A stretch of DNA of 64,000 nt, taken from a virus. Position 1 is the stretch's first letter. Each line of letters opens with the position of its first letter. The stretch spans positions 32,001-96,000 of IMG/VR virus record IMGVR_UViG_3300023440_000002. One strand, written 5' to 3'. The notes beneath the pieces are model-generated. The model saw only the letters and a program-made list of their open reading frames with translations. It searched no databases and had not been told where the DNA came from. A program made the position numbers and the translations under genes. Shown in pieces: positions 8,842 to 39,978 of the stretch.

Positions 8842-8868
8842 TAAAGTTATCCGCTATTCAGCCGATAA
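8842..8868 (+). promoter_or_regulatory. Sigma-28 (FliA)-type promoter
   Basis: TAAAGTTA-N11-GCCGATAA versus the established consensus TAAAGTTT-N11-GCCGATAA. Confidence 0.85.
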
Positions 8869-9193
8869 GTAATATGTAACAAGGAAACACTAACAACAAA
8901 AAGGGCGAAATATGACACACAAAATAGTAAAGCTAGAGTCTGTTTTTGTAAAGTTTCCTGATAGGTGCGCTAAAGCTTGGGCTAAAGGTCGAAGATTGAC
9001 AGCTAAAGACATCGAAGAGGAGTTACTTAAGATATCTGAAGAGATAGCTAGGACTGCAAAAAAATGCCGACGTTAAGCTTTTTTTTATGCCTATCTTGTG
9101 ATTATCGGTGGGTAAAAGATTGTGGGTATTCCGGGAAGTGTGATCTTTGCGGTAATTTGTACGTTAAATGGACAAACTATAAAGGTGGTATTT

Positions 9194-9880
9194 ATGACTG
9201 CAACAGAAAAGAAGTCAATAATCAAAAAAATACAGAAGCTTCTAAGTCTAGCAGGATCAGAAAACGAAAACGAAGCAGAGCTAGCCGCCGCCGCAGCAAG
9301 TAAAATGATAACCCAACATAACCTGTCAACTCAAGAAGTTGAAATGGATCAATCATACGAAAACGCCGAAGTGGTAGAAAAAAATAGATTATCCCAAGAA
9401 GATAAGTGGGTTTTGCCGATCATCAAAGCTTTTTTCTTTGTTAGTCCTATGATTTGCAGTAGGGTTGCAGGGTATAACAACAAAACTGGTAATGTTCGCA
9501 GGACTCATACTATTAAGTTTGTTGGTGAAGAGGTTAATGTTGCCGTAGCTAAAGAACTATATATCTTTTTGGTTCGAGAGTACAAGATTTTATTTACCAG
9601 TTATAGGATTAAAACTGGATGTAAACTAAGCAGTAGAGATTCCTATTATGACGGATTGACTTTCGGATTAACTAAAAAACTAAAAGAAGTAAGATCAGCA
9701 ACTGAAAGTGAAACAGGACTAGTTGTTTTGGAAGACCCTAAATTAAAAGACTTTGTTAAAGAACTTTACCCAACAGCAAAAAAAACAACCAGAAAAGCTA
9801 ACTTGAATGACCGTAAAGCCCAAAGTCAAGGGGTGACGGATGGAAAAACTATCAACTTAAATAAAAACATTAACAGTTGA
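9194..9880 (+). CDS. DUF2786-like domain protein
   Basis: 'IIKKIQKLLSLAGSENENEAELAAAAASKMITQHNL' fits the DUF2786 pattern. The Met at 9194 is the likely start. Confidence 0.75.
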   Translation: MTATEKKSIIKKIQKLLSLAGSENENEAELAAAAASKMITQHNLSTQEVEMDQSYENAEVVEKNRLSQEDKWVLPIIKAFFFVSPMICSRVAGYNNKTGNVRRTHTIKFVGEEVNVAVAKELYIFLVREYKILFTSYRIKTGCKLSSRDSYYDGLTFGLTKKLKEVRSATESETGLVVLEDPKLKDFVKELYPTAKKTTRKANLNDRKAQSQGVTDGKTINLNKNINS

Positions 9881-10060
9881 CACCTAACTAAAAGAAAGGG
9901 TAGTGTTATGGGCGAGATAATTAAACTTTTTAAAGATAAAAAGATCTCACACACAAAAAACAGTGAATTTAAAGACAAGGTGGAGAAAATTAAAGCTTCA
10001 TTACAAAGAATTCAAAAATTAATGGAAGTTCTGCGGGAACACCAAAAAAAGGAAACCTAA

Positions 10061-10714
10061 ATGAAAAACACCAAAAAGAAGATTTTTTTCTATTCCGACC
10101 CTCATTATGGGCACGATAACGTAATCGGTTTCTGCAAAAACAGAAAATACAACACAATCGAAGAAATGAATGAGGATTACATTAAAAAATACAACCAAAT
10201 GGTACCTGAAGATGGGGTTGTGTTTTGGTTAGGCGATTGTTTTTTTAAGACAAGTAAGGACAACGCAAAAAACATAATGGATCAGCTTAACGGAACTAAG
10301 GTTTTGATTAGGGGGAATCACGATTGGGGTGTTAATGCTATGTATAAATTGGGTTTTTCTGCGGTGGTAGAATACGCTGAAATGTATATTTCTGGTTTGC
10401 CCGTAAAATTAAAGCATTTTCCTAGCAAGTATACTTCCAGCAAGATCAAAAACTGGCTTAAGTTTAATAAGTTGACTAGGTGGCTATCAAGGGTTTTGCC
10501 TGTCAAGCCTATCTATATTCCTAGGTATTTCAATAGGTTTCCAGAGCAGGACGGGAAATGGTTACTTCATGGTCACACCCACTCTACGGATAAGGTCGAT
10601 TACAAACACAAAATGATTCATGTGGGCGTCGATGCTTGGGGCGGACGTCCCGTACCTTTTAGTAGTATAGAGTCAATCATAAACAGAACAATAACACAAA
10701 AAAAGAAAGATTAA
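10061..10714 (+). CDS. Calcineurin-like metallophosphoesterase
   Basis: SDPHYGH, LGD, GNHD, HGHTH and VGVD motifs. Confidence 0.9.
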   Translation: MKNTKKKIFFYSDPHYGHDNVIGFCKNRKYNTIEEMNEDYIKKYNQMVPEDGVVFWLGDCFFKTSKDNAKNIMDQLNGTKVLIRGNHDWGVNAMYKLGFSAVVEYAEMYISGLPVKLKHFPSKYTSSKIKNWLKFNKLTRWLSRVLPVKPIYIPRYFNRFPEQDGKWLLHGHTHSTDKVDYKHKMIHVGVDAWGGRPVPFSSIESIINRTITQKKKD

Positions 10715-10840
10715 AGCACACTCAAGGTTTCAAAGGCTTAACGGTAGGTTTAACTACGACAGAAGCCCCTCTTCGAGTTGATGGGTGTATTATTTTCATA
10801 GTTGAGTCCTAAAAAAAAGTGGTTATTTATTATATTAGGC

Positions 10841-10867
10841 TAAAGTTTTTCATCAAACGACCGATAA
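10841..10867 (+). promoter_or_regulatory. Sigma-28-type promoter upstream of the DUF6745-like gene
   Basis: TAAAGTTT-N11-ACCGATAA. Confidence 0.85.
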
Positions 10868-10903
10868 GGTTAATAACAATAACGCTTCAAAGGAGATAGC
10901 GAG

Positions 10904-11797
10904 ATGGCAGAACTAAAAGAGAAGTTAACGGCATTAACAAAAGATCAAGAAGGGGCTATGGAGGGGTACAAAGACGAAGGTTGTCGTATCGGTCTTACTC
11001 TTGAAGATAACAAAACCGACCCAAAAAGAGTTCATGATATTATGAATCAGTTAAGGGTTTCTTGTGGTTTTGAAGAAGCCGAAGATTTTGTTTACCTTGA
11101 TAGCCCTAAGGCGGCTGTTTCAGGGTATGAAGAGTGTAATGTGCATAATTGTATGTACGGGTATCATGACATCAACTGGATTCAACACTACATGTTCTTT
11201 AAGAAAGAAACTGAGATTGAAGTTGACGATCGGATTGATCTTATGTTGGAGTTAGCGGAAACAGCTGGCTGGATGTGGATGACACCTAAACTGAATATTA
11301 TCACCAAAAGACCGGTTAAGTTAAACATGATCAAAAAAAGCAACAACATTAAGGTTATGCATAACTACAACGGAAAAGCTGTCGAGTTTGCTGACGGTTA
11401 CGGGGTTTATATGATTAATGGGGTTCAAATCCCAAAAGATCTAACTTACTTGGTCGATATGCCGGCCGAAGAGATAGACATCAAAACTGTCCTTGATATT
11501 AAAAACACCGAAATTAGAACAGAATTCCTAAAAAAGGTCGGTATCGAAAAGGCTTTTGATTCTCTATCTAAAACAAAACTAGACGAAAAGGAGATGGAAA
11601 TTGGTGGAACTTACGAGTTGTTTTCTGTTCAATTAGGTGAAGTTACTCGCATTTACCTAAGAGGTGAGTGCCCAAGCAATCAAGAACCTTTCTTTGAAGG
11701 TTGCCATCCGGACTGCAAAACAGTAGAGCAGGCTTTGAATTTCCGTAACGGGTTCAAACTTAACCTTAAGTTTAATGCACCACTAAACTTAACCTAA
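10904..11797 (+). CDS. DUF6745-like protein with no internal low-complexity tract
   Basis: 'LTKDQE..Y...IGL', 'LDSP', 'YGYHDINW', 'AGWMW', 'RP', 'H..NGKAVEFADGYGVYMINGV', 'IKNTEIR', 'CPS', 'VEQALNFR' match the family layout as I recall it. Confidence 0.7.
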   Translation: MAELKEKLTALTKDQEGAMEGYKDEGCRIGLTLEDNKTDPKRVHDIMNQLRVSCGFEEAEDFVYLDSPKAAVSGYEECNVHNCMYGYHDINWIQHYMFFKKETEIEVDDRIDLMLELAETAGWMWMTPKLNIITKRPVKLNMIKKSNNIKVMHNYNGKAVEFADGYGVYMINGVQIPKDLTYLVDMPAEEIDIKTVLDIKNTEIRTEFLKKVGIEKAFDSLSKTKLDEKEMEIGGTYELFSVQLGEVTRIYLRGECPSNQEPFFEGCHPDCKTVEQALNFRNGFKLNLKFNAPLNLT

Positions 11798-11807
11798 AAG
11801 CCTAATA

Positions 11808-11845
11808 AAAAAAAAGAGGATGCTGAGGCACACCCTCTTTTTTTT
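11808..11845. terminator. Intrinsic terminator-like hairpin
   Basis: A8-GAGG...CCTC-T8 after the 11797 stop. Confidence 0.6.
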
Positions 11846-11920
11846 AAAAAAACACTTGAAACTTAATATTAATTGTAGTAGACTAACCAACGAAAAGAGC
11901 AATTAAGCTCAAAAGGAGAA

Positions 11921-12307
11921 ATGTATATGCAGTACTACCAGCAAGGTGACGTTTTGCTAAAGAAGGTTTCAGTCCTTCCAAAGGAAGCAAAAAAGATTAA
12001 AGGGAAGGTTCTTCAAGAATCTGAGATTACAGGCCATCACCATCATTTTAAGGGTAACGCAGCGGTTGATCTATATCAAACCCTCGAAACTCCAACTAAT
12101 GATAAAACCATCACACCGAACTTTGGCAAATTCATCATTGTTAAAGAAATGTCAGATCTTTTCCACGGAAAAGGCTTTGACGCCACCCCTGCGGCACTAA
12201 ACCGAGGCGACCATGACGCAATCTCTATTCCACCTGGAATTTACGAGATCGATATCGTTAGAGAGTACGACTTTGACGCAAATGAGGTTTCTCGAGTGGT
12301 CGATTAA
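11921..12307 (+). CDS. Small conserved phage protein, usual neighbour of DUF6745 genes
   Basis: 'YQQGDVLL', 'E.TGHHH', 'H..I.IPPG.YEI...REYD'; SD GGAG present. Confidence 0.7.
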   Translation: MYMQYYQQGDVLLKKVSVLPKEAKKIKGKVLQESEITGHHHHFKGNAAVDLYQTLETPTNDKTITPNFGKFIIVKEMSDLFHGKGFDATPAALNRGDHDAISIPPGIYEIDIVREYDFDANEVSRVVD

Positions 12308-12317
12308 TCGACCACTT

Positions 12318-12354
12318 AAAGGGGTGTCATTTTTACATGACACCCCTTTTTTTT
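12318..12354 (+). terminator. Rho-independent terminator
   Basis: GGGGTGTCAT-loop-ATGACACCCC followed by T8. Confidence 0.9.
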
Positions 12355-12748
12355 ATAGCAAAAAAACCTAATATTATAAGCAAAGAGAGGTAACTGATTG
12401 ATATGTTTGAACTGTAAATTAGGTTATATGACCAGGCATCATGAACAACCATTTGGTGTGAATGAGTGGGTTAAGTGTTCGTTATGTTCATACTGTTGCA
12501 AAGGAAGTACGGATGATAGTTGTTATAAAAAAAAGCACCTTAGCCGAAATGAAGAAAAGAATCCAGAGATTAGAAACCCTCCACTTGAAAGCAGTAGAAA
12601 GAGCTGAAAAAGCAATTAAAGACCTCGAAAAAGCAACTAAAAAAAAGAAACCTGAGTGCTCACACACTTTTAACCCAAAATGGGAATCACACATTGGACC
12701 AGCCCCTTGCTTGAAGTGCGGCCATGTAGTGTACCAAACGGACATCTA

Positions 12749-13171
12749 ATGACTTTACTAGTAGACCTACAAAACTTAACGATTGGCACACAGACGAAGC
12801 AGATCGACGCTAATGATTCATACATGGAACATGCCGGACCGGTAGACTTCCGTTCGTTCATGGAATCAAAAGCAAGAAAAGGCGAAACTTCCGCCATGTT
12901 CCACTTAGAAAAGGAAGGTAATGCCAGAATAAGAAAGGCAGGTTACCAGTCTCTCAGTGGTCAAATAGGCACCTTAAGACCAGAACCTGGTCGAGGACTG
13001 ATAAGTCGTAATGGGGTAGGGTGGCTTTATATGAACCTGTCCACTTTAAATGAAACACAATTCAAAGCAGAGGTGCAAGATTTTATAGATTATCTAGAAT
13101 CAGAGGGTATCGTAATAACATCAGAGATAGTAGGTACTTCCATGGCGGACATTGGGGTTTCTTGGGCTTAG
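12749..13171 (+). CDS. Hypothetical protein
   Basis: Part of track ORF 12680..13171; likely start MTLLVDL overlaps the previous stop (TAATG). Confidence 0.55.
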   Translation: MTLLVDLQNLTIGTQTKQIDANDSYMEHAGPVDFRSFMESKARKGETSAMFHLEKEGNARIRKAGYQSLSGQIGTLRPEPGRGLISRNGVGWLYMNLSTLNETQFKAEVQDFIDYLESEGIVITSEIVGTSMADIGVSWA

Positions 13172-13186
13172 CTCGCAAAACTTAAC

Positions 13187-13213
13187 TAAAGTTTTTCAGC
13201 AAAGATCCGATAG
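13187..13213 (+). promoter_or_regulatory. Sigma-28-type promoter heading the + micro-ORF array
   Basis: TAAAGTTT-N11-TCCGATAG, about 50 nt before the first unit. Confidence 0.75.
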
Positions 13214-13259
13214 GGTGTATGTAAATGGCAAGTAGCTAACCCAATAAGGGAAAACCTAG

Positions 13260-15494
13260 ATGGAAACTAAATCTATTGCAAGTAAGGTTCACAGGAAGGT
13301 TCACGAGCAGATTCGCTGGCAGGTTTTCGGGCAGATTAACTGGGAGATTAGCAACCAGGTTGCCGATCAAATAATCAATCCAATAATCAATCCAATAAGG
13401 GATGATCTAAATGGAAACTAAAGATATTACAAAAGATGTTCGCCAGCAGGTTTACGAGCAGGTTCGCCAGGAGGTTTACGAGCAGGTTAACCGGCAGGTT
13501 CGCTGGAAGGTTGACGAGCAGATTCACTGGCAAATTCGAGATCAGGTTTACCGGCAGGTTCGCTGGCAGATTAACTGGCAGATTAGCGATCAGGTTAACT
13601 GACAAATAACTGAACCAATAAAGGATAACCTAGATGAAAGCTAAAGATATCACAAAAGAGGTTTACCGGCAGGTTCGCTGGCCGATTCTCGAGCAGGTTG
13701 CCGATCAAATAATCAATCCAATAATCAATCCAATAAGGGAAAACCTAAATGGAAGCTAAAGTTATTACAAATATAACCGATAAGATTTACAGTCAGGTTC
13801 TCAACCAGGTTAGCGACCGGATTCACGAGCAGCTTTACTGGGAGATTTACGGGCAGGTCCACGACCAGGTTCTCGGGCAAATATCTGACCCAATAGAGGA
13901 AAACCTAGATGGAAGCTAAAGTTATTACTAATAATATTTACGACCAGGTTCGCCAGAAGATTAAACAGCAGATTTTCGAGCAAGTTTATTGGCAAGTTAG
14001 CTTGCAGGTTCGCTGGTATATTAGCGATCAGATTAACCAGCAGGTTCGCGAGCAAATAGCCACCCCAATAAGGGAAAATCTAAGTGGAAACTGAAGATAT
14101 TACAAAAGAGGTTCGCCGGCATATTGTCAAGCAGATTAACTTGCAGGTTCGCGATCAAGTAACTAATCCAATATGGACTGATCTAAATGGAAACTAAAGA
14201 CGTTACAAATACAGCCGATCAGTCCCGCCGGCAGGTTCGCTGGAAGGTTGCCGATCAGGTTTTCGACCAGGTTAATGATCAGGTTAATGATCAGGTTTAC
14301 TGGCAGATTAACTGGGAGATTAGCAACCAGGTTGCCGATCAAATAATCAATCCAATAATCAATCCAATAAGGGATGATCTAAATGGAAACTAAAGATATT
14401 ACTAATGAGGTTCGCCAGCAGGTTTACTGGGAGATTCACAGTCAGGTTAACTGGCATGTTCGCAACCAGGTTCGCAACCAGGTTCGCCGGAAGGTTTTCT
14501 CGCAGATTTACGAGCAGGTTTTCGGGCAAATAACTAACCCAATAAAGGAAGATCTAGATGGAAACTGAAGATGTTACAGATAAGATTTACTATCGAATTA
14601 CCGGACAGGTCCGCAATCAGGTTGAGTGGCAGGTTCGCAGGCAGGTTCGTGACCAGATTATTGACCAGATTTACGACCAGATTGACGAACAAATAGTTAT
14701 CCCAATAAAGGAAAATCTAAATGACTGAAGCTAAAGTTATTAAAAATAAGATTTACCGGCAGATTCGCGGCCAGATTTGCCGGCAGATTAACCGGCAGAT
14801 TCGCTGGCAGACTCGCAGTCAGATTTGCCGGCAGATTAACTGGGATATTCGCGATCAGGTTCGCATTCAGATTTACGATCAGGCTAATGATCAAATATTT
14901 AATCCAATAAGGGATGATCTAAATGGAAACTAAAGATATTACAAATACAGCCGATCAGTCCCGCCGGCAGGTTCGCTGGAAGGTTGCCGATCAGATTTTC
15001 GACCAGGTTAATGATCAGGTTTACTGGCAGGTTTTCGGGCAGATTAACTGGGAGATTAGCAACCAGGTTGCCGATCAAATAATCAATCCAATAATCAATC
15101 CAATAAGGGATGACCTAAATGGAAACTAAAGATATTGCAAAAGAGATTCACGAGCAGGTTTACGAGCAGGTTTGCGACCAGGTTAGCGAGCAGGTTCGCC
15201 GGCAGGTTCGCCGGCAGGTTTACTGTCAGATTGGCGACCAGACTTACTGGCAAGTAACTAACCCAATAAGGGATGACCTAAATGGAAACTGAAGATATTG
15301 CAAAAGAGATTCACGAGCAGGTTGGCGAGCAGATTCGCCGGCAACTTTACGAGCAGGTTAACCGGCAGGTTCGCTGGAAGGTTGACGAGCAGATTTACTG
15401 GAAGGTTCGCTGGCAGATTCTCAACCAGGTTTCCGAGCAAATTACCAATCAGATTATCTGACAGATTCAAAACCCAATAAGGGATAACCCCTAA
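13260..15494 (+). repeat. Micro-ORF array 1: 13 coupled QVxx-repeat units
   Basis: Unit starts read by hand at 13260, 13411, 13634, 13749, 13909, 14084 (GTG), 14187, 14383, 14558, 14721, 14923, 15119 and 15282. The conserved junction CCAATAAGGGAnnAnCTARATGGAAACTAAAGATATT holds an SD and an 11-nt start/stop overlap. Confidence 0.92.
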
Positions 15495-15516
15495 ATAAAC
15501 TAAGAAAGGAACTATT

Positions 15517-15738
15517 ATGGCAAAGCAAGAATCAACACCGTGGGATGACCTAGAAGGAAGATTGGTCAACTACAAAAAACTACACCAGAAGAAAGCCACC
15601 GGACCACTCAAGGAAGAACTGGCTAAGGCAAAAACCCTAACTCAAGCTAGAAAGGTACTCTTCGGAGAAAAGAAGAAAAGAATCAATTGCTCTAATTGCT
15701 CACACAAAGTTTGTGTTTGCGGGAAAACTTCCCGTTGA
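15517..15738 (+). CDS. Small hypothetical protein with C-terminal Cys cluster
   Basis: SD AAGGA; CSNC..VCVC. Confidence 0.55.
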   Translation: MAKQESTPWDDLEGRLVNYKKLHQKKATGPLKEELAKAKTLTQARKVLFGEKKKRINCSNCSHKVCVCGKTSR

Positions 15739-15906
15739 TTTTCGCAGTGAAGGTCAAAATAGAATCATTTGACTCGAGGTTTACTGAAATAACCCAAGAC
15801 CTTTATTTCAGTAAACCTCCTAGTGAACAAGAAATAACCAAAGAGGCTTCTATTGACCCGCAAGTAAAGTGGTCATACATCGTAAAAAGAGTAATCATAA
15901 TCAACA

Positions 15907-16161
15907 ATGAAGGTATTTAACTTAATATTATGGCTTAAGGGATTGTTCTCTAAAAAGGGTATATCACACACTATTATGAAACCCCAAGGATTTAACGCCC
16001 TTAAGCCTAGCACCCCATCTAATTGCATTTATTGCGAAAACCAATGGGAAGAATTCGACCAGCATTCTTATGAAAGATGCAGTAAATGCTTCGATCTAAC
16101 CAACCTCCACCCAAGCAAAGTAACTTTAAAGAACAATAAAATCACCATTAACTTCGAGTAA
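15907..16161 (+). CDS. Small zinc-ribbon-like hypothetical protein
   Basis: Two CxxC motifs. Confidence 0.45.
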   Translation: MKVFNLILWLKGLFSKKGISHTIMKPQGFNALKPSTPSNCIYCENQWEEFDQHSYERCSKCFDLTNLHPSKVTLKNNKITINFE

Positions 16162-16165
16162 ACCC

Positions 16166-18391
16166 ATGACTAAATACGAACAATTCAGACAATACATCGC
16201 CCAATTCCTCCAAGGCCCTAACGTAGAAGCGATACTTAATAGTTTAGCAGACGATTCAACTAAACTAGAAAACCTATCGAGATCCGTAACAGACCAGCTA
16301 ACCATATCGACAGCCTCAAGTGTTTACTTAGATAAAAGACTAGCTGACAAAGGAATAACTCGCCCACCAGAACTAGGCATGTCTGACATATCATTCCGTA
16401 AGATGGGAATACAAATAACTGCGGCTAAGCAACTAACTGGATTAATCCATACGATACTGGGCACTTTCTATGGTGAAGAAGCAGTAAGGGCTAACCTGAA
16501 GAATACTAAGACAGGACCTTACAACCTAGAAGAAGGAATGGAACTAGAGTTCGAACTAGAGGATGGTATTACTAGGGTGGTATCATTCAAAAACACAGAC
16601 TTCATAAACATCAACCAAGCTACGGCATCAGAGGTAGCATCAGTAATAACACGATTCATAAGAACACAGAACTTAGGAGCTTTTGCTAGTACAGTAAAGG
16701 ACTTAAACACAGGCTTAGAGTTCATAAAGTTGTTCGGTGGAGCTGCGGGGCCATACTCAACAGTGACAGTCACAGGAGGCGAAGCTAATACAATCCTGCA
16801 ATTTCCTAATATTAGAGGAACCGAGCTGTTAGTTAATGATACAGCATGGGAGATTACCCGTACCGTAGGCAGCACATTACGGTTCAGATGGGCAGGCAAT
16901 TCCAAACCGGCATTAGACTTGATATTTCCAACCGACCGCGTAATGATTTACGGGCAAAGTTTTGAGTCTATTGGACTGGCCGGAACTTTTATTGTCTCAA
17001 ACGTACGACCTCCACTGATCGGCCCAGACCTAGACGCAGGGTGGTTCGAGATAGAAGTCCCTGCTTTCAGTGGCTTACGTTCTACTCAGCCTGGCACAAC
17101 ACCCCCAACTAACGTACCACCCGACACTATCTATTCTTATACCATAGTTCAAGCCAACTGGGAAGAGCTAATGTTCATGAAGCCAGTCAAAGCTTTACCT
17201 AACCGCCAGGTGCGTTACGCCTTAGGTTGGGAGCCTAGAGGTGATTTGCTGCGAATTTATATGCCGGCAACAACTGGTATTGTCTCTAGGGGGATTGAAG
17301 GTGCAGCACACTTACATTCGCTTTACGAGGACGGTAATCTGGATGGGGCTTTCGGCTCTGTTACGGATCTTGACTCCGCAGTGGAAGTTATCTCAGATCG
17401 CATTATACGATACCGCCAACTAGGTTACGATAATCACGCTACGGGAGGAGTATTGTCTTGGGGTGGTAATGACTACGAAATCGATTATGTCCGGCGTGAG
17501 CAATTCACCTCTACCGTATTTTTGAATGAGCCCCACGGATTGCCGGTAGTGCAAGATTCTTTCGGGCGCGACGTTTCTTTGGAAGTGGTATCTGTTGTGG
17601 TGGATATTATGCAGACAGACGATTTAGAATTCAAATCCCCCTATATGGTTGACCTAGGTAAGAACTACACCGTCAGGTCTGAGTTTGTTACTTCTCGCGC
17701 TAAGGTGTTTGCGGGTTCCACCCTGTCCACTTTGGATGTGGATGGTATTTTACCTAATGAGCCAGGGGTATTATTGTTCGACTTAAACACCGACAAAGAA
17801 GAAGGCCCTATTCGTTATGTTGGGGTTCAGGCTCAAAACGCCCCTAACGTGGTGAATATAGTGACTATTTCCCAAAACGGGCTGAATGTTACCATTACCA
17901 CAGATGCTCCTCACGGCGCTACTAGTGGCAGCAACATAGTAATATCAGGTACAACTTTCTTTGATGGGGTGTATCCCGTAGTGGGCGTACCTAACCCGAC
18001 TACCATCCAAGCGATTTCCACTGTCGTCCAGGTGGAGAATGAGGTTGGGGTAGGTAGCTTGTCTGTTGTGGTGGATAATGTTCGGTCTACGTTGCTGCTC
18101 GACCCTAGCAATGAATTCAAGTTTGATCATGAAATAGGAGCTGACTTAACTTTGATGTCTTCTAGGAATGCCTACCAGCCTGCCTTAGATGGCTCAGATT
18201 ACCCGTTCTACGTTACTGGGGTAGCTGAGGGTAGAGTTTTCGCTGCGGACGTCATAGAGGCTATTACGGCGTTAGGGATTAATATCGAAATATTGATCGT
18301 CTACCCAAGCGATAAAGGCCTAGGCAACGAAGGAGGTTCAGATGGTAATGAAACCCCTGTGTCAGATAAAGTTACGGTTTGGGGTGTTTAA
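16166..18391 (+). CDS. Probable baseplate/tail structural protein
   Basis: 741 aa. N-terminal 'ISTASSVYLDK..GITRP..MSD.SFR' resembles wedge-subunit motifs. Shares 'F...ATA.E' and 'VTITTDAPHG..G..I.ISG' motifs with 1596..8291 and 42074..47227. Confidence 0.65.
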   Translation: MTKYEQFRQYIAQFLQGPNVEAILNSLADDSTKLENLSRSVTDQLTISTASSVYLDKRLADKGITRPPELGMSDISFRKMGIQITAAKQLTGLIHTILGTFYGEEAVRANLKNTKTGPYNLEEGMELEFELEDGITRVVSFKNTDFININQATASEVASVITRFIRTQNLGAFASTVKDLNTGLEFIKLFGGAAGPYSTVTVTGGEANTILQFPNIRGTELLVNDTAWEITRTVGSTLRFRWAGNSKPALDLIFPTDRVMIYGQSFESIGLAGTFIVSNVRPPLIGPDLDAGWFEIEVPAFSGLRSTQPGTTPPTNVPPDTIYSYTIVQANWEELMFMKPVKALPNRQVRYALGWEPRGDLLRIYMPATTGIVSRGIEGAAHLHSLYEDGNLDGAFGSVTDLDSAVEVISDRIIRYRQLGYDNHATGGVLSWGGNDYEIDYVRREQFTSTVFLNEPHGLPVVQDSFGRDVSLEVVSVVVDIMQTDDLEFKSPYMVDLGKNYTVRSEFVTSRAKVFAGSTLSTLDVDGILPNEPGVLLFDLNTDKEEGPIRYVGVQAQNAPNVVNIVTISQNGLNVTITTDAPHGATSGSNIVISGTTFFDGVYPVVGVPNPTTIQAISTVVQVENEVGVGSLSVVVDNVRSTLLLDPSNEFKFDHEIGADLTLMSSRNAYQPALDGSDYPFYVTGVAEGRVFAADVIEAITALGINIEILIVYPSDKGLGNEGGSDGNETPVSDKVTVWGV

Positions 18392-20671
18392 GATCTCCCC
18401 TTATCAGGTTAGCTACTTGCCAGCTAACCTGCCAGTGAACCCGGTTGCTAGTCTGACGTTGAATATGCCAGTAAACCTGTCCGCTAACCTGCTCGTAAAC
18501 CTGCCGGTAAATCTGCTCGCGAATCTTATTAGCAATATCATTAGTTTTCATCGATATCATCCTTTATTTGGTTAGCTACTTGCCAGCTAATCTGCTCGAG
18601 AATCGGCCAGCGAACCTGCCTTCTAATCTTATTGCTAACCTGCCAGCGGACCTGCCAGTGAACCTGCCAGATAACCTGCCAGTAAATCTGCTCGCGAACC
18701 TGCTGGCGAATCTCTTTTGCAATATCATTAGTTTCCACTTAGGTCGCTCCATATTGGATCAGTTATTTGCAGGCGAACCTGCTCGCAAGCCTGCCGGTGA
18801 ACCTGCCATCCAACCTGCCAGCTAACCTGCTCGATAACCTGCTCGAGAATCTGCTCGTAAATCTGCTCGCGAATCTTACTTGTAATATCATTAGTTTCCA
18901 TTCAGATTATCCCTTATTGGGTTGGCTATTTGCTGGCCAACTTGGTCGATAATCCGGTCGCTAACCTGCCGGTAAACCTGCTCGATAACCTTCCAGTAAA
19001 CCTGGTCGTCAATCTGCTCGAGAATATGCCAGCAAACCTGATCGTAAACCTCCTGGCGAATCTCTTTTGCAATATCATTAGTTTCCACTTAGGTCGCTCC
19101 ATATTGGGTTGGCTATTTGCTCTTGAACCTGCCAGTAAACCTGGTCGTTAACCTTCCAGTAAACCTGTCCGCTAACCTGCTCGTAAACCTGTCGGTAAAT
19201 CTGCTCGCGAACCTGATCGATAACCTGCCCTCGAACCTGCTGGCGAATCTCTTTTGCAATATCTTCAGTCATATAGATCATCCTTGATTGGATTAGCTAC
19301 TTGCAGGCGAACCTGCTCGTAAACCCGCCAGTTAATCTGGTCGTCAATATGGCCGTAAATCTTCCAGCGAATTTCTTTTGTAATACCTTTAGCTTTCATT
19401 AAGGTTATCCTTTATTGGGTTAGCTATTTGATCGAAAACCTGGTCGATAACCTGCCCGCTAACCTGGTCGTCAATCTGCTCGAGAATATGCCAATAAGCC
19501 TGGTCGTTAACCTGCCCCAGAACCTGCTGGCGAACCTGCCAACGAACCTCATTAGTAATAACTTTAGCTTTCATCTAGGTCGCTCCATATTGGATCAGTT
19601 ATTTGCAGGCGAACCTGGTCTCGAATCTCCCAGTGAACCTGCTCGATAACCTGCAAGTTAATTTGCTTGACAATATGCAGGTAAGCCTTCCAGCTAATCT
19701 CTTTTGCAATATCTTCAGTCATTTAGGTTTTCCTTTATTGGGTTAGTTATTTGCCAGCTAACCTGCTCGAGAATCTGCCAATTAACCTGCTCGATAACCT
19801 GCCAGTAAACCTGTTCGATAACCTGCCGGCGGATCTGGTTGCGAACCTGCCCGCTAACCTGGTCGTCAATCTGACAGTAAACTTGCCAGCTAATATCTTC
19901 AGTCATTTAGGTTATCCTTTATTGGGTCAGATATTTGATCATGAACCTGCCATCCAATCTGCCATCCAATCTGCCGGAAAACCTGCCAGTAAACCTGTCG
20001 GCGAACCTTCCAGAGAGCTTGGTCGTTAACCTGATCATTAACCTGCCGGTGAACATCTTTTGCAATATCTTCAGTTTCCATTTAGGTTATCCTTTATTGG
20101 GTCAGATATTTGATCATGAACCTGCCATCCAATCTGCCATCCAATCTGCCGGAGAGCCTGGTCGTTAATCTGCCAGTAAATCTGTTGGTGAATCTGCTGG
20201 TGAATCTCATTAGTAATATCTTTAGCTTTCATCTAGGTCTTCCCATATTGGATTAGCTATTTGCTCGAAAACCTGCTCGTAAACCTGCCGGCGAACCTGG
20301 TCGTAAACCTGCCCGCGAATCTGCCAGTAAATCTCCCAGTAAACCTGCCAGTTAACCTCTTTTGTGATATCTTCAGATTCCATTTAGATCTACCTTTATT
20401 GGGGTGGCTATTTGATTGCGAACCTGCTCGTAAACCTGCCGGCGAACCTGGTCGCAAACCTGCCCGCGAATCTGCCAGTAAATCTCCCAGTAAACCTGAT
20501 CATTAATCTGCCAGTGAAGCTTCCAGTGAACCTGGCCGTTAATCTGCTCTCGAACCTGCTGGCGAATCTCATTAGTAATATCTTCAGCTTTCATCTAGGT
20601 CATCCATTATTGGGGTGGCTATTTGATTGCGAACCTGGTCGCTAACCTGCCGACCTTACTTTACATAAACC

Positions 20672-20698
20672 TTATCGGTTATGTCTGTAATAACTTTA
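20672..20698 (-). promoter_or_regulatory. Sigma-28-type promoter inside an array unit
   Basis: Reverse complement TAAAGTTA-N11-ACCGATAA. Confidence 0.75.
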
Positions 20699-20958: not shown

Positions 20959-20985
20959 TTATCGGCTATATCTGTAATAACTTTA
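20959..20985 (-). promoter_or_regulatory. Sigma-28-type promoter inside an array unit
   Basis: Reverse complement TAAAGTTA-N11-GCCGATAA. Confidence 0.8.
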
Positions 20986-23525: not shown

Positions 23526-23552
23526 TTATCGGTTATACCTGTAATAACTTTA
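23526..23552 (-). promoter_or_regulatory. Sigma-28-type promoter inside an array unit
   Basis: Reverse complement TAAAGTTA-N11-ACCGATAA. Confidence 0.75.
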
Positions 23553-29041: not shown

Positions 29042-32000
29042 TTATTTTGTCCAATTTTCATAGTGTCTTGTTGGGTTGTGGGGGATATCAGTTCTTCTGA
29101 TTGAATCCATAGCGCGAACGATTTTGTTTGCCGGTTGAACACTGCGAATTACTCCCTCATATCTAACTGTGACTTCAGAGCCACCTTTAATGTCTTTTAT
29201 TTTAATTATGTAGTTAATATTAATCCACACCCCTACTTTTATCTCTAGCATCATAACTCTACCTCCTTAAACCCATTAAAGTTTTCGGCGTATTCATCTA
29301 AAGCTAGCTCAGCTTTGAGTTTGTCTTGCTTACTTAAACCTTCCGGAAGTCCAACTTCCAAAAAACTAAAACCCGACATAGGAAACCCTCTATTGCCGTC
29401 TGCGTCAGCCCCATAGTTTGGGTCACTCCAGTATTCAATTATAGCAGACAGCTCGTGCTCTTCGCCTTTCTCGTCTGCCCAGTCAACATAAATAACTACC
29501 GTTTCGTTTTTCATTTCTCCACCTTAATGTAAAGTTTCTTTGTTTACCTTGAAGTTGACACTAATTGCCTTAGATCCCTCATCAATCAGCCTCATCAGAG
29601 ATTCAGGTGATGTTGAAATATTAATTACATTGGAATAAGCAGTAGTGTTCTTGTTCGCTAAACAAAGGTCGCAAAAATCCGTAAGTTTCGAGGTTTGGCT
29701 TTTGTTGAGTGCCCTTATTTTGTTTTGACCTATAATTGCGACATCTACGGTTGTCGCTTTTACGAAATTGTCGATATTTATAGGTTCGTTAGATTCTAGT
29801 TTTGCTCGCTCTACGTCAGCCATCATAACGCAAGCCCCTTTTGGGTGAATAAGCCACTGAACTCTACCTTCAGTTTTTAGGGCTACCTCATCACTTAATT
29901 TCATTTCTTCTAGCATTAGGTTGGCTGCCAAATCTTCTGATGTAGCAGACTTATTAATCAAACTAGACCATAAACCCTTCTTTCCATACCTTTCGAAAAA
30001 ATCAACCTGAAGGTTGGCTCTTTGTTTTTGTTCTAGGGTTAACCCCTTAATGATTTTGGTAGCTCTTTTCAGCACATCGTTTTTTTTGATCTCTTTAGAT
30101 GCATTAAGGATATTTCTTTTTTGCTCTTCTGTGCATCCTTCAAGCACCTTATCTAATTCGTCTTTATTTAAAACTATCGTCTCATCTTTCATGGTAAACC
30201 CTTCCCGGATTATGATTTGCTGCAACAGTCGCCTGCTTGCTGGTATGTGTAGTATTTAAGTTCGCACTCTTTGCATTGATGGTTTTTTGGTTGAGCTTTT
30301 CCGTCCGAGATAGTGTATTTGTATGGCACATTGCTCATTTTAAGCATCTGCACCAGATCTTCTGCGTGCTCTCTTTCGTCGAATTGCTCGGTTCGACCTT
30401 GAAATATAACTAAATGAGGCATCTTAATTCCTTCTTCAATTACCTTATCGGTTGTTTTTGGCTAAATCTTTAGCTTTAGTTGCGCTTTTCCAAAAAATTA
30501 TAATAGCTTCTTTGTCTGCCAGTAAAAAAGAGGTGTAATGACTCCTATAAACCGACTCTAGATTCAACAGGGCTTTATCTGTTATGTTGACGTACTCCTC
30601 TTCTGGAATCGTATCAAGCATATAAGCCAACATACTTCCGGCTTTATATGTATCTATCGTCGCCCCGCTAGACCATTTGCCGGTTAAGGTAGCTCTTGAG
30701 TATAAAGCTATAAGCCGGCTAAATCTAGCCCCTTCGGTTTTTGCTTTTCTGGTTTTGTTTGTTTTAGTTTTAAGCTTATCGACTAGTTCGTCGTAAGTGA
30801 AATTAAAGAAAATGTCCGTTACTTCACCTAATTCGGTGACCACTGGAGAATCCACAGGCGCTTCCAAGCTAAGAATATCCCCTTTTCTTAGTGTTACTTT
30901 TCTTCCTTCTGTTGCTTTCATGGCTAATCTCCGTAAACTGACGAACTACTGAAGAAAAAATCCCGCATCTTTTCTTTTTCGGTTGGTTCGTTTTCTGACT
31001 CTGTGAAGCCCTCTACGGCTTGGAACTGACTGGAATCAGCTCTTCTTATTAAGTCCATAAAGGTCGAATAAGTTACTTCTGGTTTGGGGCATGTCGAAAA
31101 ATAATCATCGATGTTTCGACTTATTATGTCGAAACCTTCATCGGCCGCATTGACTTCTAGCCAAGCCCCCAAAGAAGGAGCTATCACTCTAACGTGATCT
31201 AAATCTTTCGTTAGTTCTTTAATTTGACCTATTCTTTCTGGCGCTGACAAAACAGACAGCCAAACCTTGCATTCTTTCATTTTCATTGTCCGTTTACCAT
31301 CCCAATCACAATCATAGCTAAAAGGTTCATCTCAATCAAAACAAAAACAATAATCAGAGTAGCTCCGATATCTTCCAGTAGCTTTACCATTTTAGGGTTA
31401 TCTTCCTTTCGAGCTTTAACCCAAAGACGAGATAACATATAGAGACATATTACGATGATAATAAAAACTATAAACATCACTAACTCCTTATTGTTCTTAT
31501 CGGGTGTTCGGTGAGAAAACTTTAGCTAAAAACTTCAAGATTGTTCTTTTATCCATTTAGCTAGGTTTTCATAGGCGAACTGTAACGCTTTTTTGTGTGA
31601 TCTTGCCACGCCTTCAATATGATGAACCCTACCGAAAGGGGTTTCTACGCATGCTGTTACGTATCCTTTTTCTGGTACATCTTGAATAAACCAGGTGACG
31701 GTATCAAATGCGTCACCGTCTCGATCTTTAATTGATTCTAAATCTTCTGATAGTGTTGTTGTTCTCATGGTTAATCTCCGTAAACTGACGAACTACTGAA
31801 GAAAAAATCCCGCATCTTTTCTTTTTCGGTTCGCTCTTCTTTTTTTGGCATTCTAGGCGTAATAGGCGTGGTGGGTTCATATGTGACAGTTCTGGCTTCG
31901 GCAATCTCCTTCGTTAGCCCTCCCTTATCTACCACCATATAACCTGAAATGTCAATATTTGACGAATTAATAAACTCGGCAACAATATGACCATTATCAG

Positions 32001-35335: not shown

Positions 35336-35362
35336 TTATCGGTTGTTTAATATAAAACTTTA
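35336..35362 (-). promoter_or_regulatory. Sigma-28-type promoter
   Basis: Reverse complement TAAAGTTT-N11-ACCGATAA. Confidence 0.8.
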
Positions 35363-35727: not shown

Positions 35728-35801
35728 AACTTTACCCTATGAAAACCAATATCATTAATAATACCCAAATTACGGCCATTGCTAAAACAGTATAATTCAC
35801 T

Positions 35802-35993
35802 TTAATTTCCTTCCAGGTCTAAATCTTTAGGCGTACCAACAGGACGCTTAATAACCTTGCTTGCTAGATATTTATCTCAATCTCTTTCTTCGTCGTAGCT
35901 TTTTCTAAGTTTTTTTAGTTCATTGAGTATATCCATCATAACCCAAATTGTCCAAGATGTAACTACTACAGCTAAAAATATATTCATTATCAT
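35802..35993 (-). pseudogene. Paralog of 34608..34796 interrupted by an in-frame TGA
   Basis: NELKKLRKSYDEERD*DKYLASKVIKRPVGTP versus DELRKLRKSYDEERNRNWDRYLGSKVVKRPVGIP; TGA at 35877-35879. Confidence 0.6.
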
Positions 35994-36009
35994 CACACAT
36001 CCTTTGGTT

Positions 36010-36063
36010 AAGTCTCATCAGTTACGTCATCAACGTAAGACCACCCGAAGGTGGTTTCGACTT
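36010..36063 (-). ncRNA. Type II hammerhead ribozyme
   Basis: Minus strand reads AAGUC-GAAA-CCACC-UUCG-GGUGG-UC-UUACGU-UGAUG-ACGUAA-CUGAUGA-GACUU. The full catalytic core and three perfectly paired stems are present. Confidence 0.9.
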
Positions 36064-36065
36064 GG

Positions 36066-38060
36066 TTAATCGTCATCACTCGCAAGAGGTGATGGGCAGG
36101 TTACAGTTGGGATACTAAGAATTCTGGTTCGTGTAGACCAGTGATAGTGACCACCACCACCATGATAATATTTATATCGCTCTGATATAGCCACTGTGGA
36201 TACAGTCACGCTACACACTAAGTCAGGGTTTGATTCTAGAGCCGCGATAGCATCCGAGTTAGCCTGAATCAATGCGGTTAGTGTTTCGATGCTACCACCA
36301 GCACCAGAGATACTCTCAATGTCCGCCTGAACTTGAGTGTCATCATAAACAGTATCTGAATCATTTGCATCGGCGTAATCGTTAGCTGCTTGTTCAGCGT
36401 CATCAATTGCTTGAAGTAATGATGTATTTTGAGCATCTAGATCAGTTTGCAAATCATCAATCCTATTTGATAATGCTAAGTCAGCTCCATCAATATAACC
36501 CTTAGCTAGCAACAACACTTGATAAGCTACGTCATTTTGATAAGAGTTCTCAGAGTCAATATACAACTCTAATGTGCTAACCGCAGATGCTAATGCTTGA
36601 TCTTGTCTTCCATTTTCAGAGTCAACATAAGATCTCAACAACTGATCAGCTAATTCGCTAGCTGCCTGATTAGTATCAACATCTAATTGCAGTCTATCAA
36701 TCATCGCTACCAAGCTTGACCTTAATGCGCCGTCTTGTCTGTCTGCATAAGCCTTAGCAGATTGTTCAGATCTAGAGATTCTGTGTTCTAAAGAGTGAAC
36801 TGCCGAATTTAGCCGTCTAGACATTCTTGAATCTAATCGCCTGATCTTGTATCGCAATCTTCTCTTTACTCGTCGAATTTTAGATCGCAACTCACTTTCA
36901 AGGATGTCATCTTGATTGTCAGCGTACAATTTAGCAGCTTGTTCAGCTTGTCCAATTTCAACCCTCAGTTGAGCAAGTTCAGTTGCTAGTACTGTATCTT
37001 GATCTGTATTTGCTTGATTTAGGATACCTACAGCTTCCTGCAAAGCAGCTTCAGCGAGACTTACTGATTCAGCATCTCCTTCAGAAATTGCTGTGTTCAG
37101 GTTAGATATTGCAGTTGCTAGTACTGTATCTTGATCTGTATTTGCTTGATTTAGATCTTCGAGCATTGCAGCTATCGCGACTTCAATTTCACCTTTGGCT
37201 GTATTTAGTGCGTCCATTAGCTCCATATCAGCCTCTTCCATGTCGGATCGTAAAGAGTCCATATCGCTATCGACATCCCGAAACTCACCATCCACCAATA
37301 TAGCTCTTAATTCTGCTTCCAGTTCTAACTGGCTAATCAAAACAGTATGCGCTGATGATTGAGCCTCTTCAGCACTTAGACGCGACTCACTATTAGCCAT
37401 CCGCTCATCAGCAAGCTTCTCAGCTGCTAATCTATCCAAACGCTCTTGTTCGGCCTGATTTTGCAGTCGCTTAAGCTCCTCTCGCTCTTCTCGGTTAGGA
37501 TCTCTCATTTGATCAAGTCGATCGGTGGTATAGCCTTTGGTTATCTCACCTTTGCGCCGAACCTTACCTTCGTAGTCATCGAATTGCTTGCTGAAAGCAT
37601 CTCCGGTGATATTACGATCTCCAGTATAGCCGGCAGCTTTATTTTTGCTAGCTGAAACTTTGTCTTTGTTGTTCATATAACCAGAGTCAACTTTATCCCG
37701 ACTATTAACGTAACCTTTGTCGGTATCGCTAACTGTGTCGTTTTCAAAGTTTTGAAGGTCTTCGCCAGTCATATTCCGATCATTCATATAACCAGAAGCT
37801 TTCTTATCTGTGGCAACAACCTTCTCTTTCTGGTCAACATAACCTTTGTCGGTGTCACTCGCCACCTTGTTTTGGAAGTTTTGAAGATCTTCACCGGTCA
37901 TGTTGCGCTTAGTGAAGTAATCCTTAGCTCCTTCAGTACCAAACTCAAAAGTCGGAGCATTTAGTGAAACATCACTAACACCATTCATGCCATCAAGCTT
38001 CATCTCTTGAGTACCACACCCAAGGAATAACAATGCTAGCGTTAACAATAAATACTTCAT
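36066..38060 (-). CDS. Predicted lipoprotein with long coiled coil and internal repeats
   Basis: Start MKYLLLTLALLFLGC (lipobox) at 38060 with SD AGGAG. Repeats RNMTGEDLQNF..SDTDKGYV and LNQANTDQDTVLAT. Confidence 0.7.
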   Translation of the reverse strand: MKYLLLTLALLFLGCGTQEMKLDGMNGVSDVSLNAPTFEFGTEGAKDYFTKRNMTGEDLQNFQNKVASDTDKGYVDQKEKVVATDKKASGYMNDRNMTGEDLQNFENDTVSDTDKGYVNSRDKVDSGYMNNKDKVSASKNKAAGYTGDRNITGDAFSKQFDDYEGKVRRKGEITKGYTTDRLDQMRDPNREEREELKRLQNQAEQERLDRLAAEKLADERMANSESRLSAEEAQSSAHTVLISQLELEAELRAILVDGEFRDVDSDMDSLRSDMEEADMELMDALNTAKGEIEVAIAAMLEDLNQANTDQDTVLATAISNLNTAISEGDAESVSLAEAALQEAVGILNQANTDQDTVLATELAQLRVEIGQAEQAAKLYADNQDDILESELRSKIRRVKRRLRYKIRRLDSRMSRRLNSAVHSLEHRISRSEQSAKAYADRQDGALRSSLVAMIDRLQLDVDTNQAASELADQLLRSYVDSENGRQDQALASAVSTLELYIDSENSYQNDVAYQVLLLAKGYIDGADLALSNRIDDLQTDLDAQNTSLLQAIDDAEQAANDYADANDSDTVYDDTQVQADIESISGAGGSIETLTALIQANSDAIAALESNPDLVCSVTVSTVAISERYKYYHGGGGHYHWSTRTRILSIPTVTCPSPLASDDD

Positions 38061-38074
38061 TTTCTCTCCTAAAA

Positions 38075-38173
38075 AATTAAAAATAGGCGTGATTGCCAAG
38101 ATTAGTACTATTATCGGTTTATTTTCAAATAACTTTAGCGGTTTCTTATTATTTCTTCTACACCCTCAAAAGA
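38075..38173. repeat. 99-bp exact direct repeat, copy 1 (copy 2 at 39508-39606); contains a sigma-28-type promoter
   Basis: Identical sequence by eye; promoter TAAAGTTA-N11-ACCGATAA on - at 38111-38137 and 39544-39570. Confidence 0.9.
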
Positions 38174-38674
38174 TACGGAACAGCAGTGAGATGTTTCGCA
38201 CTTAGGGCATGCATTCTCAATAGATATGTATTCCCCACTTACTGAATCTTCTATTGTTCCGTCTATCAGTTCGGAATAGTCGAAAGTGGATTTACAATCA
38301 AAACACTTAACTTTTTTGGGTAGATATTCATACAGCCATTTCGGTTCCGGGGCCATAGACGTAAATACCTCATGAGGAGTATTTACTTCATAATCCCGCA
38401 AATTATATGCTTCCAACCCCTTCAGTTCAGTTTCAGTTAGCGGCCTACTTAAAACAACAACACATGTTTTATTTTTTGACCAGGTTTTTTGATAATCCAC
38501 TTTCCAGCACATTATGGCACCTATGGAGCCTAAACCTAAAGGTAAGGCCTCTTCAGGGTTACAGTCTAAAGTTAATGTTACCGTAGTTCTACCGCTAGGA
38601 ACCAAATATTGCGTTTCTCCTGCATCAGGATTCTTCTTTATGGAAGACTTCCTGATTTTTACTAAATACATCAT
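38135..38674 (-). CDS. Hypothetical protein with C-terminal zinc ribbon
   Basis: CFDC ... CPKC. Confidence 0.6.
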   Translation of the reverse strand: MMYLVKIRKSSIKKNPDAGETQYLVPSGRTTVTLTLDCNPEEALPLGLGSIGAIMCWKVDYQKTWSKNKTCVVVLSRPLTETELKGLEAYNLRDYEVNTPHEVFTSMAPEPKWLYEYLPKKVKCFDCKSTFDYSELIDGTIEDSVSGEYISIENACPKCETSHCCSVSFEGVEEIIRNR

Positions 38675-39492
38675 TGATTCATGACACTACGAACAAACTT
38701 AAAGATTTGCCCAGAAGCCCCTTTCGTAATTGCTTTGATTTCATCTTTGCTGCCTTTAATTTCGCCCTCATCGACAAGGTCTTTAGTGTATTGCTTAACA
38801 ATTAAACCTAAAGATTTAGGGAAGTTGCGGGTAAGAGCTTCATCTTTCGAAACCACCTTTTCTAATCTGATCGGCTGGCAAAGGTGAGAGTAATCAACCA
38901 CAACTCGAGATGTTTTAGTTTTTTTGTTTTTATCTCCACCAGTCCATTTGGTGCTTTCAGGTTCGAACACTTTTTTGTATCTTTGTCCGCCAATCATAAC
39001 CACAACACCTTCGACCCGCATAAAACCTTCAGCTCCTTCAACTTTAGATCCGCTAGTTTTAAGGGTTTCAGCTACTGTATTAATCATTGAACTAGATATG
39101 TCGTTTCCGTCGTAAAGTACCGGCACTGTACCTATGCGTTCTGGTAAAGACCTTTCGTATCTCCACCAGTCAAACAACAAAAACCTTCTCTCTTTTAGAC
39201 CTTCGCCAGAATTCACCCCTAAGCCACACCATTCACCGTCATGGCGACCTAAGCCTAACTTTTCGACAATCTCATCCTTGTTGCTGTAACAAAAAGAGGC
39301 GAACCCATAATTGTCGTTTTCTGGTGTTATGAATCTATTTCTAGAACCGCAAAGTAGGCCCTTAGATCCGTCTTCATTTTCGAATACTAGAATATGAGCA
39401 TTAGTTCCATGGATCTTCTGAGTTATAGTCATCCGAAGATCTCTGAGTTGTTTTATTTTCTTGAAAGACTTGAATTCTAAAGACATAAACAC
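38671..39492 (-). CDS. RNA ligase, Rnl2-like nucleotidyltransferase
   Basis: Motif I 'TQKIHGTN', 'GEWCG', 'FLLFD', motif IV 'EGVVV', motif V 'KK'. Confidence 0.8.
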   Translation of the reverse strand: MFMSLEFKSFKKIKQLRDLRMTITQKIHGTNAHILVFENEDGSKGLLCGSRNRFITPENDNYGFASFCYSNKDEIVEKLGLGRHDGEWCGLGVNSGEGLKERRFLLFDWWRYERSLPERIGTVPVLYDGNDISSSMINTVAETLKTSGSKVEGAEGFMRVEGVVVMIGGQRYKKVFEPESTKWTGGDKNKKTKTSRVVVDYSHLCQPIRLEKVVSKDEALTRNFPKSLGLIVKQYTKDLVDEGEIKGSKDEIKAITKGASGQIFKFVRSVMNQ

Positions 39493-39978
39493 CCCCTTAA
39501 GGACAATAATTAAAAATAGGCGTGATTGCCAAGATTAGTACTATTATCGGTTTATTTTCAAATAACTTTAGCGGTTTCTTATTATTTCTTCTACACCCTC
39601 AAAAGAAATAAATACCTCCTTAAGGATAATAATTAAAAAAATCGAAAACCATGCCAGTTATGTCGAACTGAACATCTAAAGCGTGGAATAAAATACAACC
39701 GATAAAACAAACAGTCAAGTGAATAACCGCCCCTCCTATAAATTCAGCCATCACGATACCTTCTTTCTTGTTAGGTGGTAAAGATTACAGTTAGGGCAAA
39801 GGTAAGGTTCTTGGTCGCTTTTATATAAATAAAAAGCCAAAACCGCTGCATCCTCTGCCTCTTCTTTTGTTGCTAGAGTTTTCTTGTTCCAGCACATTTT
39901 ACTTCTTGCTTTGAACTTATTTGATTTCTTCCTAAAACCAGACACTTTAACCTCCTAGCTGTCCTTATAATGTTAAGT

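Follow-up and report, generated by a model that had tools for sequence, protein, structure and literature searches.

Phage transcription is usually explained by the primary sigma factor of the host plus phage-encoded factors. A 64,000-bp stretch of viral DNA (bases 32001–96000 of the IMG/VR contig IMGVR_UViG_3300023440_000002; hereafter, the window) raises the question of what reads a motif that recurs among its accessory genes and has the form of a flagellar sigma28 (FliA) promoter. The contig is 108,381 bp long, with an estimated completeness of 68%, and the phage is an uncultured member of a broad group whose sole cultured relative is Myxococcus phage Mx1. Judging from the DNA sequence, we consider it probable that these sites are promoters dependent on host FliA and that they drive the accessory island of this Mx1-related phage, a ~32-kb region that encodes phosphoesterases, an RNA ligase, nucleases, a ClpP-like protease, DUF proteins, and two arrays of mini-genes (~50 units).

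Sigma28-type sites in the accessory island

The window contains 15 exact matches to TAAAGWY-N12-DCCGATMR, where 100 dinucleotide shuffles predict 0.02 and never give more than 1, and two further sites (30445 and 31497) whose spacer is one base longer, giving 17 sigma28-type sites. The whole contig holds 16 exact sites; the one beyond the window lies at genome 23374–23400 on the minus strand (window −8626). A position weight matrix (PWM) trained on the 11 sites outside the mini-gene arrays and applied to the 108,381-bp contig returned 18 matches at or above the threshold of 14 bits, versus 0.2 in shuffles. The strong matches were confined to window −8600 through 40784, and the same scan of the whole contig placed no site in the structural blocks (1–8291 and 41540–58241). 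Sigma70-type sites showed no enrichment in 8000–16500, where 18 were seen and 18.1 expected.

The local consensus of the sigma28-type sites is GC-TAAAGTTnT...A-CCGATAA-G, and it agrees with the published FliA consensus, TAAAGTTT-N11-GCCGATAA (PMC7286023), in the −35 box, the −10 box, and the spacing. On the −35 side, TAAAG is invariant and is followed by TT in 10 of the 11 non-array sites, usually with another T, as in TAAAGTTT; on the −10 side, CCGATA(A/G) is invariant across the non-array sites, as in GCCGATAA, and the base 5′ of CCGATA is A at most sites and G, T, or C at others. The two 8-mers are separated by 11 nucleotides (nt), which places TAAAG 15 nt from CCGATA, and this spacing is exact at 15 sites of the window. 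Each of the 17 sites points in the direction of the genes around it. Those outside the arrays lie between genes or extend over the preceding stop codon, and they end 12–55 nt before a Shine–Dalgarno sequence and start codon. About 10 of them have unrelated spacers and flanks, yet keep the boxes, the spacing, and the distance to the start codon. The sites are not all independent, as those at 38111 and 39544 share a 102-bp direct repeat and thus have one origin.

These data bear out most of what the original prediction had described: its 14 listed sites are all present at the positions and on the strands given, as are its two variants with a 12-nt spacer; the motif points with the downstream genes, heads no structural operon, and matches the FliA/SigD consensus, and the genome-wide PWM scan that it had proposed gave the clear excess reported above. 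Only the site at 40758 was absent from its list. The motif is real and strongly non-random.

Candidate readers of the motif

The sole sigma gene in the contig (62199–63218, minus strand; 335–339 amino acids, aa) lies downstream of a helicase gene, in the same gene order as in Mx1. Its product has a ~135-aa N-terminal extension followed by regions 2, 3, and 4.1, and it lacks region 4.2. Regions 2 and 3 and a sigma-like fold place it in the sigma70 superfamily; its matches to the Pfam r2 and r3 models are below cut-off, and its sequence matches in the PDB are to RpoD/SigA, down to E 9e-8. The protein aligns to RpoD/SigA from region 1.2/2 to 4.1 and then ends (E. coli RpoD residues 374–575), and it covers positions 3–192 of the 238 in TIGR02393, ~46 short of the model end. 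An AlphaFold model (mean pLDDT 78.9) has just two helices after region 3, and the top Foldseek matches of this model are all primary sigma chains (probability 1.00). The family has 266 members of 302–364 aa in contigs of up to 173 kb, with an orthologue in Mx1, and 26 of 26 aligned members end right after the 4.1 helix. Since the alignments, the family ends, and the model all stop after 4.1, this is a sigma family without the helix-turn-helix that reads the −35 box; profiles, too, gave no region 4.2. Membership of the FliA/WhiG group is not supported either, with 14.3–14.6 bits against the TIGR02479 cut-off of 189.6 and best matches to RpoD-type models. Six-frame searches of the 108-kb contig found no Sigma70_r4, r4_2, or FliA_WhiG gene, and a search of the contig for a FlgM-like gene returned only a 15-bit frame containing three stops.

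The phage sigma also does not travel with the motif. Among 40 IMG/VR records that encode this sigma family (30–64% G+C around the gene), 38 lack a sigma28-type site, among them every one of the 14 with a completeness of 90% or more (144–172 kb), and Mx1 has none. The only two records with sites, G077 (8 sites) and G092, belong to the same lineage. G077, which is 84% complete, is syntenic with the contig in the structural genes and has almost none of the accessory island in common with it, and no region-4 match was found in G077. Two neighbors of the sigma gene were considered as partners and set aside. A winged helix-turn-helix (wHTH) protein of 237 aa, encoded divergently beside the helicase–sigma operon, could have bound the −35 box, but a homologue occurs in the motif-less G056 and none was found in the motif-bearing G006, G002, G004, and G005; the 206-aa gene that follows the sigma gene has no family match and is not conserved in G077. 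The siteless 38 of 40 records and the distribution of the wHTH protein thus indicate that the phage sigma and its neighbors do not explain the motif, and the phage's own sigma almost certainly cannot read the sigma28-type sites. A FliA-like phage sigma, which the original prediction had offered as an alternative, is disfavored.

The motif is found well beyond this lineage. An exact scan of IMG/VR with GCTAAAGTT-N13-CCGATAAG returned at least 80 loci, versus 5 for a control with the same pattern reversed (at least 16-fold). Among the matches listed, to which the following counts of loci, sites, proteins, and near-complete records refer, the loci range from 29 to 60% G+C, 24 have at least two sites, nearly always on a single strand, and the 117 sites mostly lie 18–60 nt before small open reading frames (ORFs). 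The downstream proteins include dCMP deaminase, NUDIX, DUF932, helicase, and similar proteins, and most match nothing; none of 94 belongs to a flagellar family, and contamination of IMG/VR by bacterial flagellar promoters was rejected on this count. Region 4 gave no match at E ≤ 0.01 in 17 of the 21 motif-bearing records with a completeness of at least 90%. One complete genome, G006 (87 kb, 4 sites), likewise has no region-4 match; its sites are near the end of the record, but a physical genome end was dismissed as an explanation because the terminal repeat is only ~127 bp and the record start is therefore arbitrary. The sigma factors examined in motif-bearing contigs were RpoD-like (G002), ECF (G021), and RpoH/RpoD-like (G051), none of them FliA-like. 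G002 (IMGVR_UViG_3300047160_021165) is a complete, 108.9-kb distant relative that encodes a full-length RpoD-like sigma of 415 aa (L085:1420-2667, minus strand) and carries 11 TGnTATAAT sites, all on one strand, plus 6 sigma28-type sites.

FliA specificity is conserved across bacteria, and many motif-bearing phages lack a suitable sigma; host FliA is thus most simply the factor that these phages have in common. Host RNA polymerase carrying the host flagellar sigma28 would then transcribe from the sites, and the phage genome would have three promoter classes. In the first, TGCTATAAT extended −10 elements before the replication and recombination genes would probably be served by the host primary sigma. 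The second would consist of the sigma28 sites before the accessory island, each heading a short unit; in the arrays, this promoter would be part of the opening codons of some units or survive in promoter-only stubs. The third would comprise plus-strand CCTAATRTT elements before the structural and lysis genes, possibly read by the truncated phage sigma. The suggestion that a host motility sigma is involved therefore stands, in that host sigma28 is the best-supported reader when the only sigma of the contig lacks region 4.2 and its family is siteless in 38 of 40 records. That the sites are early promoters is a guess, and it is a sigma70-like TGCTATAAT class that heads the replication and recombination genes.

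Several points weigh against a dependence on host FliA. The part of the genome that the ~68% complete contig lacks could encode a fliA captured by the phage or some other specificity factor. The motif-bearing G077 has a near-identical G+C content, and a factor shared by the lineage is a possible reader. Paralogous copies within coding sequence account for 7 of the 17 sites, and two of these are weak. The flagellotropic phages Chi, 7-7-1, phiCbK, and PBS1 each have 0–1 loose sites and no clusters, and the proposal that this phage targets flagellated cells finds no support in them. A literature search found no lytic-type phage that relies on FliA, which is not proof that none exists, and it returned no paper on sigma28 promoters in phage genomes. 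If the motif were instead read by an unseen phage factor, be it a fliA acquired by the phage or a novel specificity protein encoded in the missing part of the genome (roughly one-third), the phage itself would control these promoters as a middle class, with no gating by the host. The incompleteness of the contig, the commonness of phage-encoded sigma factors, and the full-length sigma factors of some motif-bearing contigs leave room for this explanation; we nevertheless consider it unlikely, because there is no region-4 or FliA-family match in 108 kb and no region-4 match in G077, most of the near-complete motif-bearing genomes are equally devoid of region 4, the sigma factors that do occur are of other types, and the contig, G077, G006, and G002 have only one protein, of 644 aa, in common.

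Three other accounts appear much weaker. That a different host sigma, primary or stage-specific, has a sigma28-like specificity and reads the motif is very unlikely in our view. FliA is a global regulator in Bdellovibrio bacteriovorus that drives most attack-phase genes (Karunker et al. 2013, PMC3627812), and the closest cultured relative of the phage infects a member of the former Deltaproteobacteria; against this, the attack-phase promoters of B. bacteriovorus have the published consensus TTAAG-N16-CCGATA, whose −35 box and spacing are not those of the TAAAG-N15-CCGATA found here, the TGCTATAAT sites suggest a canonical primary sigma, and a scan of bacterial genomes with the phage 5′–3′ exonuclease gave no host link (only 31–39% matches across many phyla, with no other phage gene in the flanks of the best match). 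The Bdellovibrionota host that had been thought plausible gains no support, given the same difference in consensus. No tRNA genes were found in the contig, and megablast against a phage collection gave no match. A division of labor, in which the truncated phage sigma reads CCGATAA and a separate phage protein reads the −35 box (a split sigma, or a MotA-like arrangement), is even less probable: retention of regions 2 and 3 and the adjacent wHTH gene would suit it, but the 38 siteless sigma-bearing records, the equally siteless Mx1, and the distribution of the two neighboring genes speak against it. Least probable of all is that the motif is not a promoter but serves a phage regulator as its operator or is a passenger of cassette and mini-gene duplication. 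The 102-bp repeat around 38111 and 39544, the seven sites in paralogous coding sequence, and the 287-bp tandem duplication that holds 20672 and 20959 would fit such an origin, whereas the ~10 non-array sites with unrelated flanks, the recurrence of the same geometry in many unrelated contigs, and the agreement with the sigma28 consensus in both boxes and spacing, an unlikely coincidence, all favor a promoter.

Individual sites, mini-gene arrays, and other promoter-like motifs

The sites of the window and the copies of the second promoter-like motif are listed in Table 1.

Table 1. Sigma28-type sites and CCTAATRTT copies, in window coordinates; bits are PWM scores
Feature	Position	Strand	Bits	Context
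Sigma28-type promoter, putative	8842–8868	+	38.3	Intergenic; ends 44 nt before ATG; heads 8912–9076 (54 aa), 9122–9880 (DUF2786/DUF7168), 9908–10060, 10061–10714 (metallophosphoesterase)
Sigma28-type promoter, putative	10841–10867	+	44.2	Intergenic; ends 37 nt before ATG; heads single-gene unit 10904–11797 (DUF6745 protein)
Sigma28-type promoter, putative	13187–13213	+	34.6	−10 box CCGATAG; heads plus-strand mini-gene array, first unit at 13260
Embedded site	13757–13783	+	35.8	Codons 3–12 of intact mini-gene 13749–13919 (MEAKVITNITDK...)
Weak embedded site, CCGATCA	14195–14221	+	below 14	Mini-gene 14187–14393
Weak embedded site, CCGATCA	14931–14957	+	20.9	Mini-gene 14923–15129
Site in truncated mini-gene stub	20672–20698	−	30.1	Followed by mini-gene 20594–20373
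Site in truncated mini-gene stub	20959–20985	−	27.3	Stub METKVITDIADKVYVK, then stop; followed by mini-gene 20881–20696
Embedded site	23526–23552	−	26.2	Intact mini-gene 23560–23378
Site in 19-codon mini-gene stub	24158–24184	−	25.6	
Sigma28-type promoter, putative	26658–26684	−	37.5	Heads 26606–26322 and minus-strand mini-gene array
Sigma28-type promoter, putative, +1 spacer base	30445–30472	−		Heads 30422–30210, 30225–29524
Sigma28-type promoter, putative, +1 spacer base	31497–31524	−		Heads 31480–31283, 31286–30924, 30921–30445
Sigma28-type promoter, putative	35336–35362	−	42.0	Heads minus-strand gene run from 35304 down to 32307
Sigma28-type promoter, putative	38111–38137	−	42.1	Large ORF ending at 36066, likely ATG near 38060
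Sigma28-type promoter, putative	39544–39570	−	42.1	RNA ligase gene 39492–38671 (PF09414) and 38674–38135
Sigma28-type promoter, putative	40758–40784	−	32.9	−10 box CCGATAG; metallophosphoesterase gene 40719–39979 (PF00149)
CCTAATRTT	1554, 12367, 26686, 41458, 42035, 53195, 58486	+		
CCTAATRTT	16805, 49396	+		Inside genes

Two convergent arrays of overlapping mini-genes occupy 13260–15461 (plus strand) and 18372–26120 (minus strand). At least 47 units of 52–97 aa were counted; they are built of x-x-Q-V/I tetrads in variable number between conserved ends (N-terminus METKDIT, C-terminus NPIKEDLNGN), and the stop codon of each falls within the start region of the next. At the seven array sites, the preceding unit terminates on the TAA of TAAAG, and TAAAG(T/A)T supplies codons 3–5 of the following one. 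The CCGATAA box is found only in a mini-gene subfamily with an extra (T/A)-D-K segment. Four of the seven sites lie in intact units (13757, 14195, 14931, and 23526), two of them low-scoring with CCGATCA; the site at 13757 may be active as a promoter, whereas this is doubtful for 14195, of whose unit the mini-gene at 14923–15129 is a paralogue. The array restarts at the 23526 site, directly after the ClpP-like gene. The other three sites (20672, 20959, and 24158) are in truncated stubs that are followed by a real gene, which for 24158 is the ClpP-like gene itself (24115–23573; PF00574, E 1.1e-5), whose ATG is ~42 nt from the end of the site. As the stubs precede real genes, we argue that at least some array copies have been retained as promoters rather than as coding sequence.

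Outside the arrays, the two sites with the longer spacer head small ORFs, and the −10 box of the 30445 site coincides in part with the stop codon of the gene before it. The run headed by the 35336 site includes an SNase-like nuclease (33924–33523) and the 5′–3′ exonuclease (33167–32307). The 38111 site lies inside copy 1 and the 39544 site inside copy 2 of the 102-bp direct repeat (38072–38173 and 39505–39606; 99–100% identity), which flanks a cassette of the RNA ligase gene and a 179-aa gene; recombination between the two copies would delete or amplify this cassette. A search of the whole window against Rfam gave no match at gathering scores, and no hammerhead was found at E ≤ 1 in 35800–36300, which includes the stretch 36010–36063 (minus strand).

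CCTAATRTT occurs 9 times in the window versus 1.9 expected, and 11 times in the whole contig, always on the plus strand. Seven copies are intergenic and precede structural, tail-fiber, and amidase genes, and the motif is a candidate late promoter class with a −10 element only. The relative G077 shows no conservation of it. A tie between CCTAATATT and the phage sigma remains a guess, as CCTAATATT is not conserved in G077. The 26658 site (minus strand) stands back to back with a CCTAATATT motif at 26686 (plus strand), the pair spanning window 26658–26694, and a second divergent pair of the same build, a minus-strand sigma28-type site near a plus-strand CCTAATATT, lies at genome 23374–23428 (window −8626 to −8573). 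Before the 10841 site stands ATATTAGG, which is most of CCTAATATT in reverse complement.

Seven copies of the TGCTATAAT extended −10 motif are present in the contig, 4 of them intergenic; within the window alone, the motif is not significant. One copy heads the block on the right-hand side of the helicase (genome 96889–106628; window 64889–74628, plus strand), which encodes the wHTH protein, a GroEL-like chaperonin (587 aa), an SbcC/Rad50-like protein, and a phosphoesterase resembling Mre11 and the PolD small subunit; an identity of these genes as terminase, portal, and capsid was rejected on the basis of these assignments.

Comparison with known promoter systems

The sigma28-type sites resemble the class 3 flagellar promoters read by FliA in Proteobacteria and by SigD in Bacillus in their boxes, their spacing, their position just upstream of genes, and their co-orientation. 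They differ in that they would drive phage accessory genes and not flagellar or chemotaxis genes, and in that the base before CCGATAA is mostly A here and G there; moreover, their density, ~17 sites in 50 kb, is far higher than in any bacterial regulon. The attack-phase promoters of Bdellovibrio offer a parallel in one respect, as there, too, sigma28-type promoters drive many non-flagellar genes, but the consensus differs, the replicon here is a phage and not a bacterial chromosome, and no host link was obtained. The coexistence of several promoter classes in one genome recalls the temporal classes of large lytic phages that encode a sigma of their own (T4 with its gp55 late promoters, phiEco32/7-11 with gp36, and SPO1 with gp28), and T4 gp55 is likewise a phage sigma without −35 recognition, with CCTAATRTT as the candidate −10-only late motif here. 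In those phages, however, the classes other than sigma70 are read by phage factors, whereas the bipartite class described here matches a host alternative sigma and does not co-occur with the phage sigma family.

Temperate phages, too, have short units with their own promoters between conserved blocks, the morons, which are autonomous and consist of promoter, gene, and terminator; unlike morons, the units here together fill an island of 32 kb within the genome of a large myovirus-type phage, and some of the promoters lie inside coding sequence. Among the motif-bearing loci, a Yersinia-type lambdoid prophage (L014:9966-10280, minus strand) carries a moron that consists of a perfect sigma28 site, an 84-aa ORF, and a terminator, on the strand opposite the nin-region genes, and the cultured Yersinia phage vB_YenM_30.14 has a site with one mismatch just downstream of cI and before the next gene (L278:1922-1948, minus strand). 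The Yersinia lambdoid phages would thus be a cultured entry point to FliA control of phage genes, and because FliA specificity is conserved, such control would be testable with standard sigma28 reagents.

The breadth of the motif, with at least 80 IMG/VR contigs of 29–60% G+C that include complete genomes without a sigma gene of their own, leads us to propose, tentatively and with somewhat less than even confidence, that many phages place accessory or early genes under the control of the flagellar sigma of the host, a widespread strategy that has so far gone undescribed. If so, it would cover about one-third of the present contig, and the array units would double as promoter cassettes. FliA is active only once completion of the hook–basal body frees it from FlgM, and phage expression would therefore follow the physiological state of the host: part of the phage program would be gated by host motility, or it would be unaffected when the primary sigma is competed for or shut off. 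The motif could then serve as a simple sequence marker that predicts phages of flagellated hosts. Taken together, the comparisons suggest that a promoter type that is itself known serves here in a role that has apparently not been described before and that may be common among uncultured phages.

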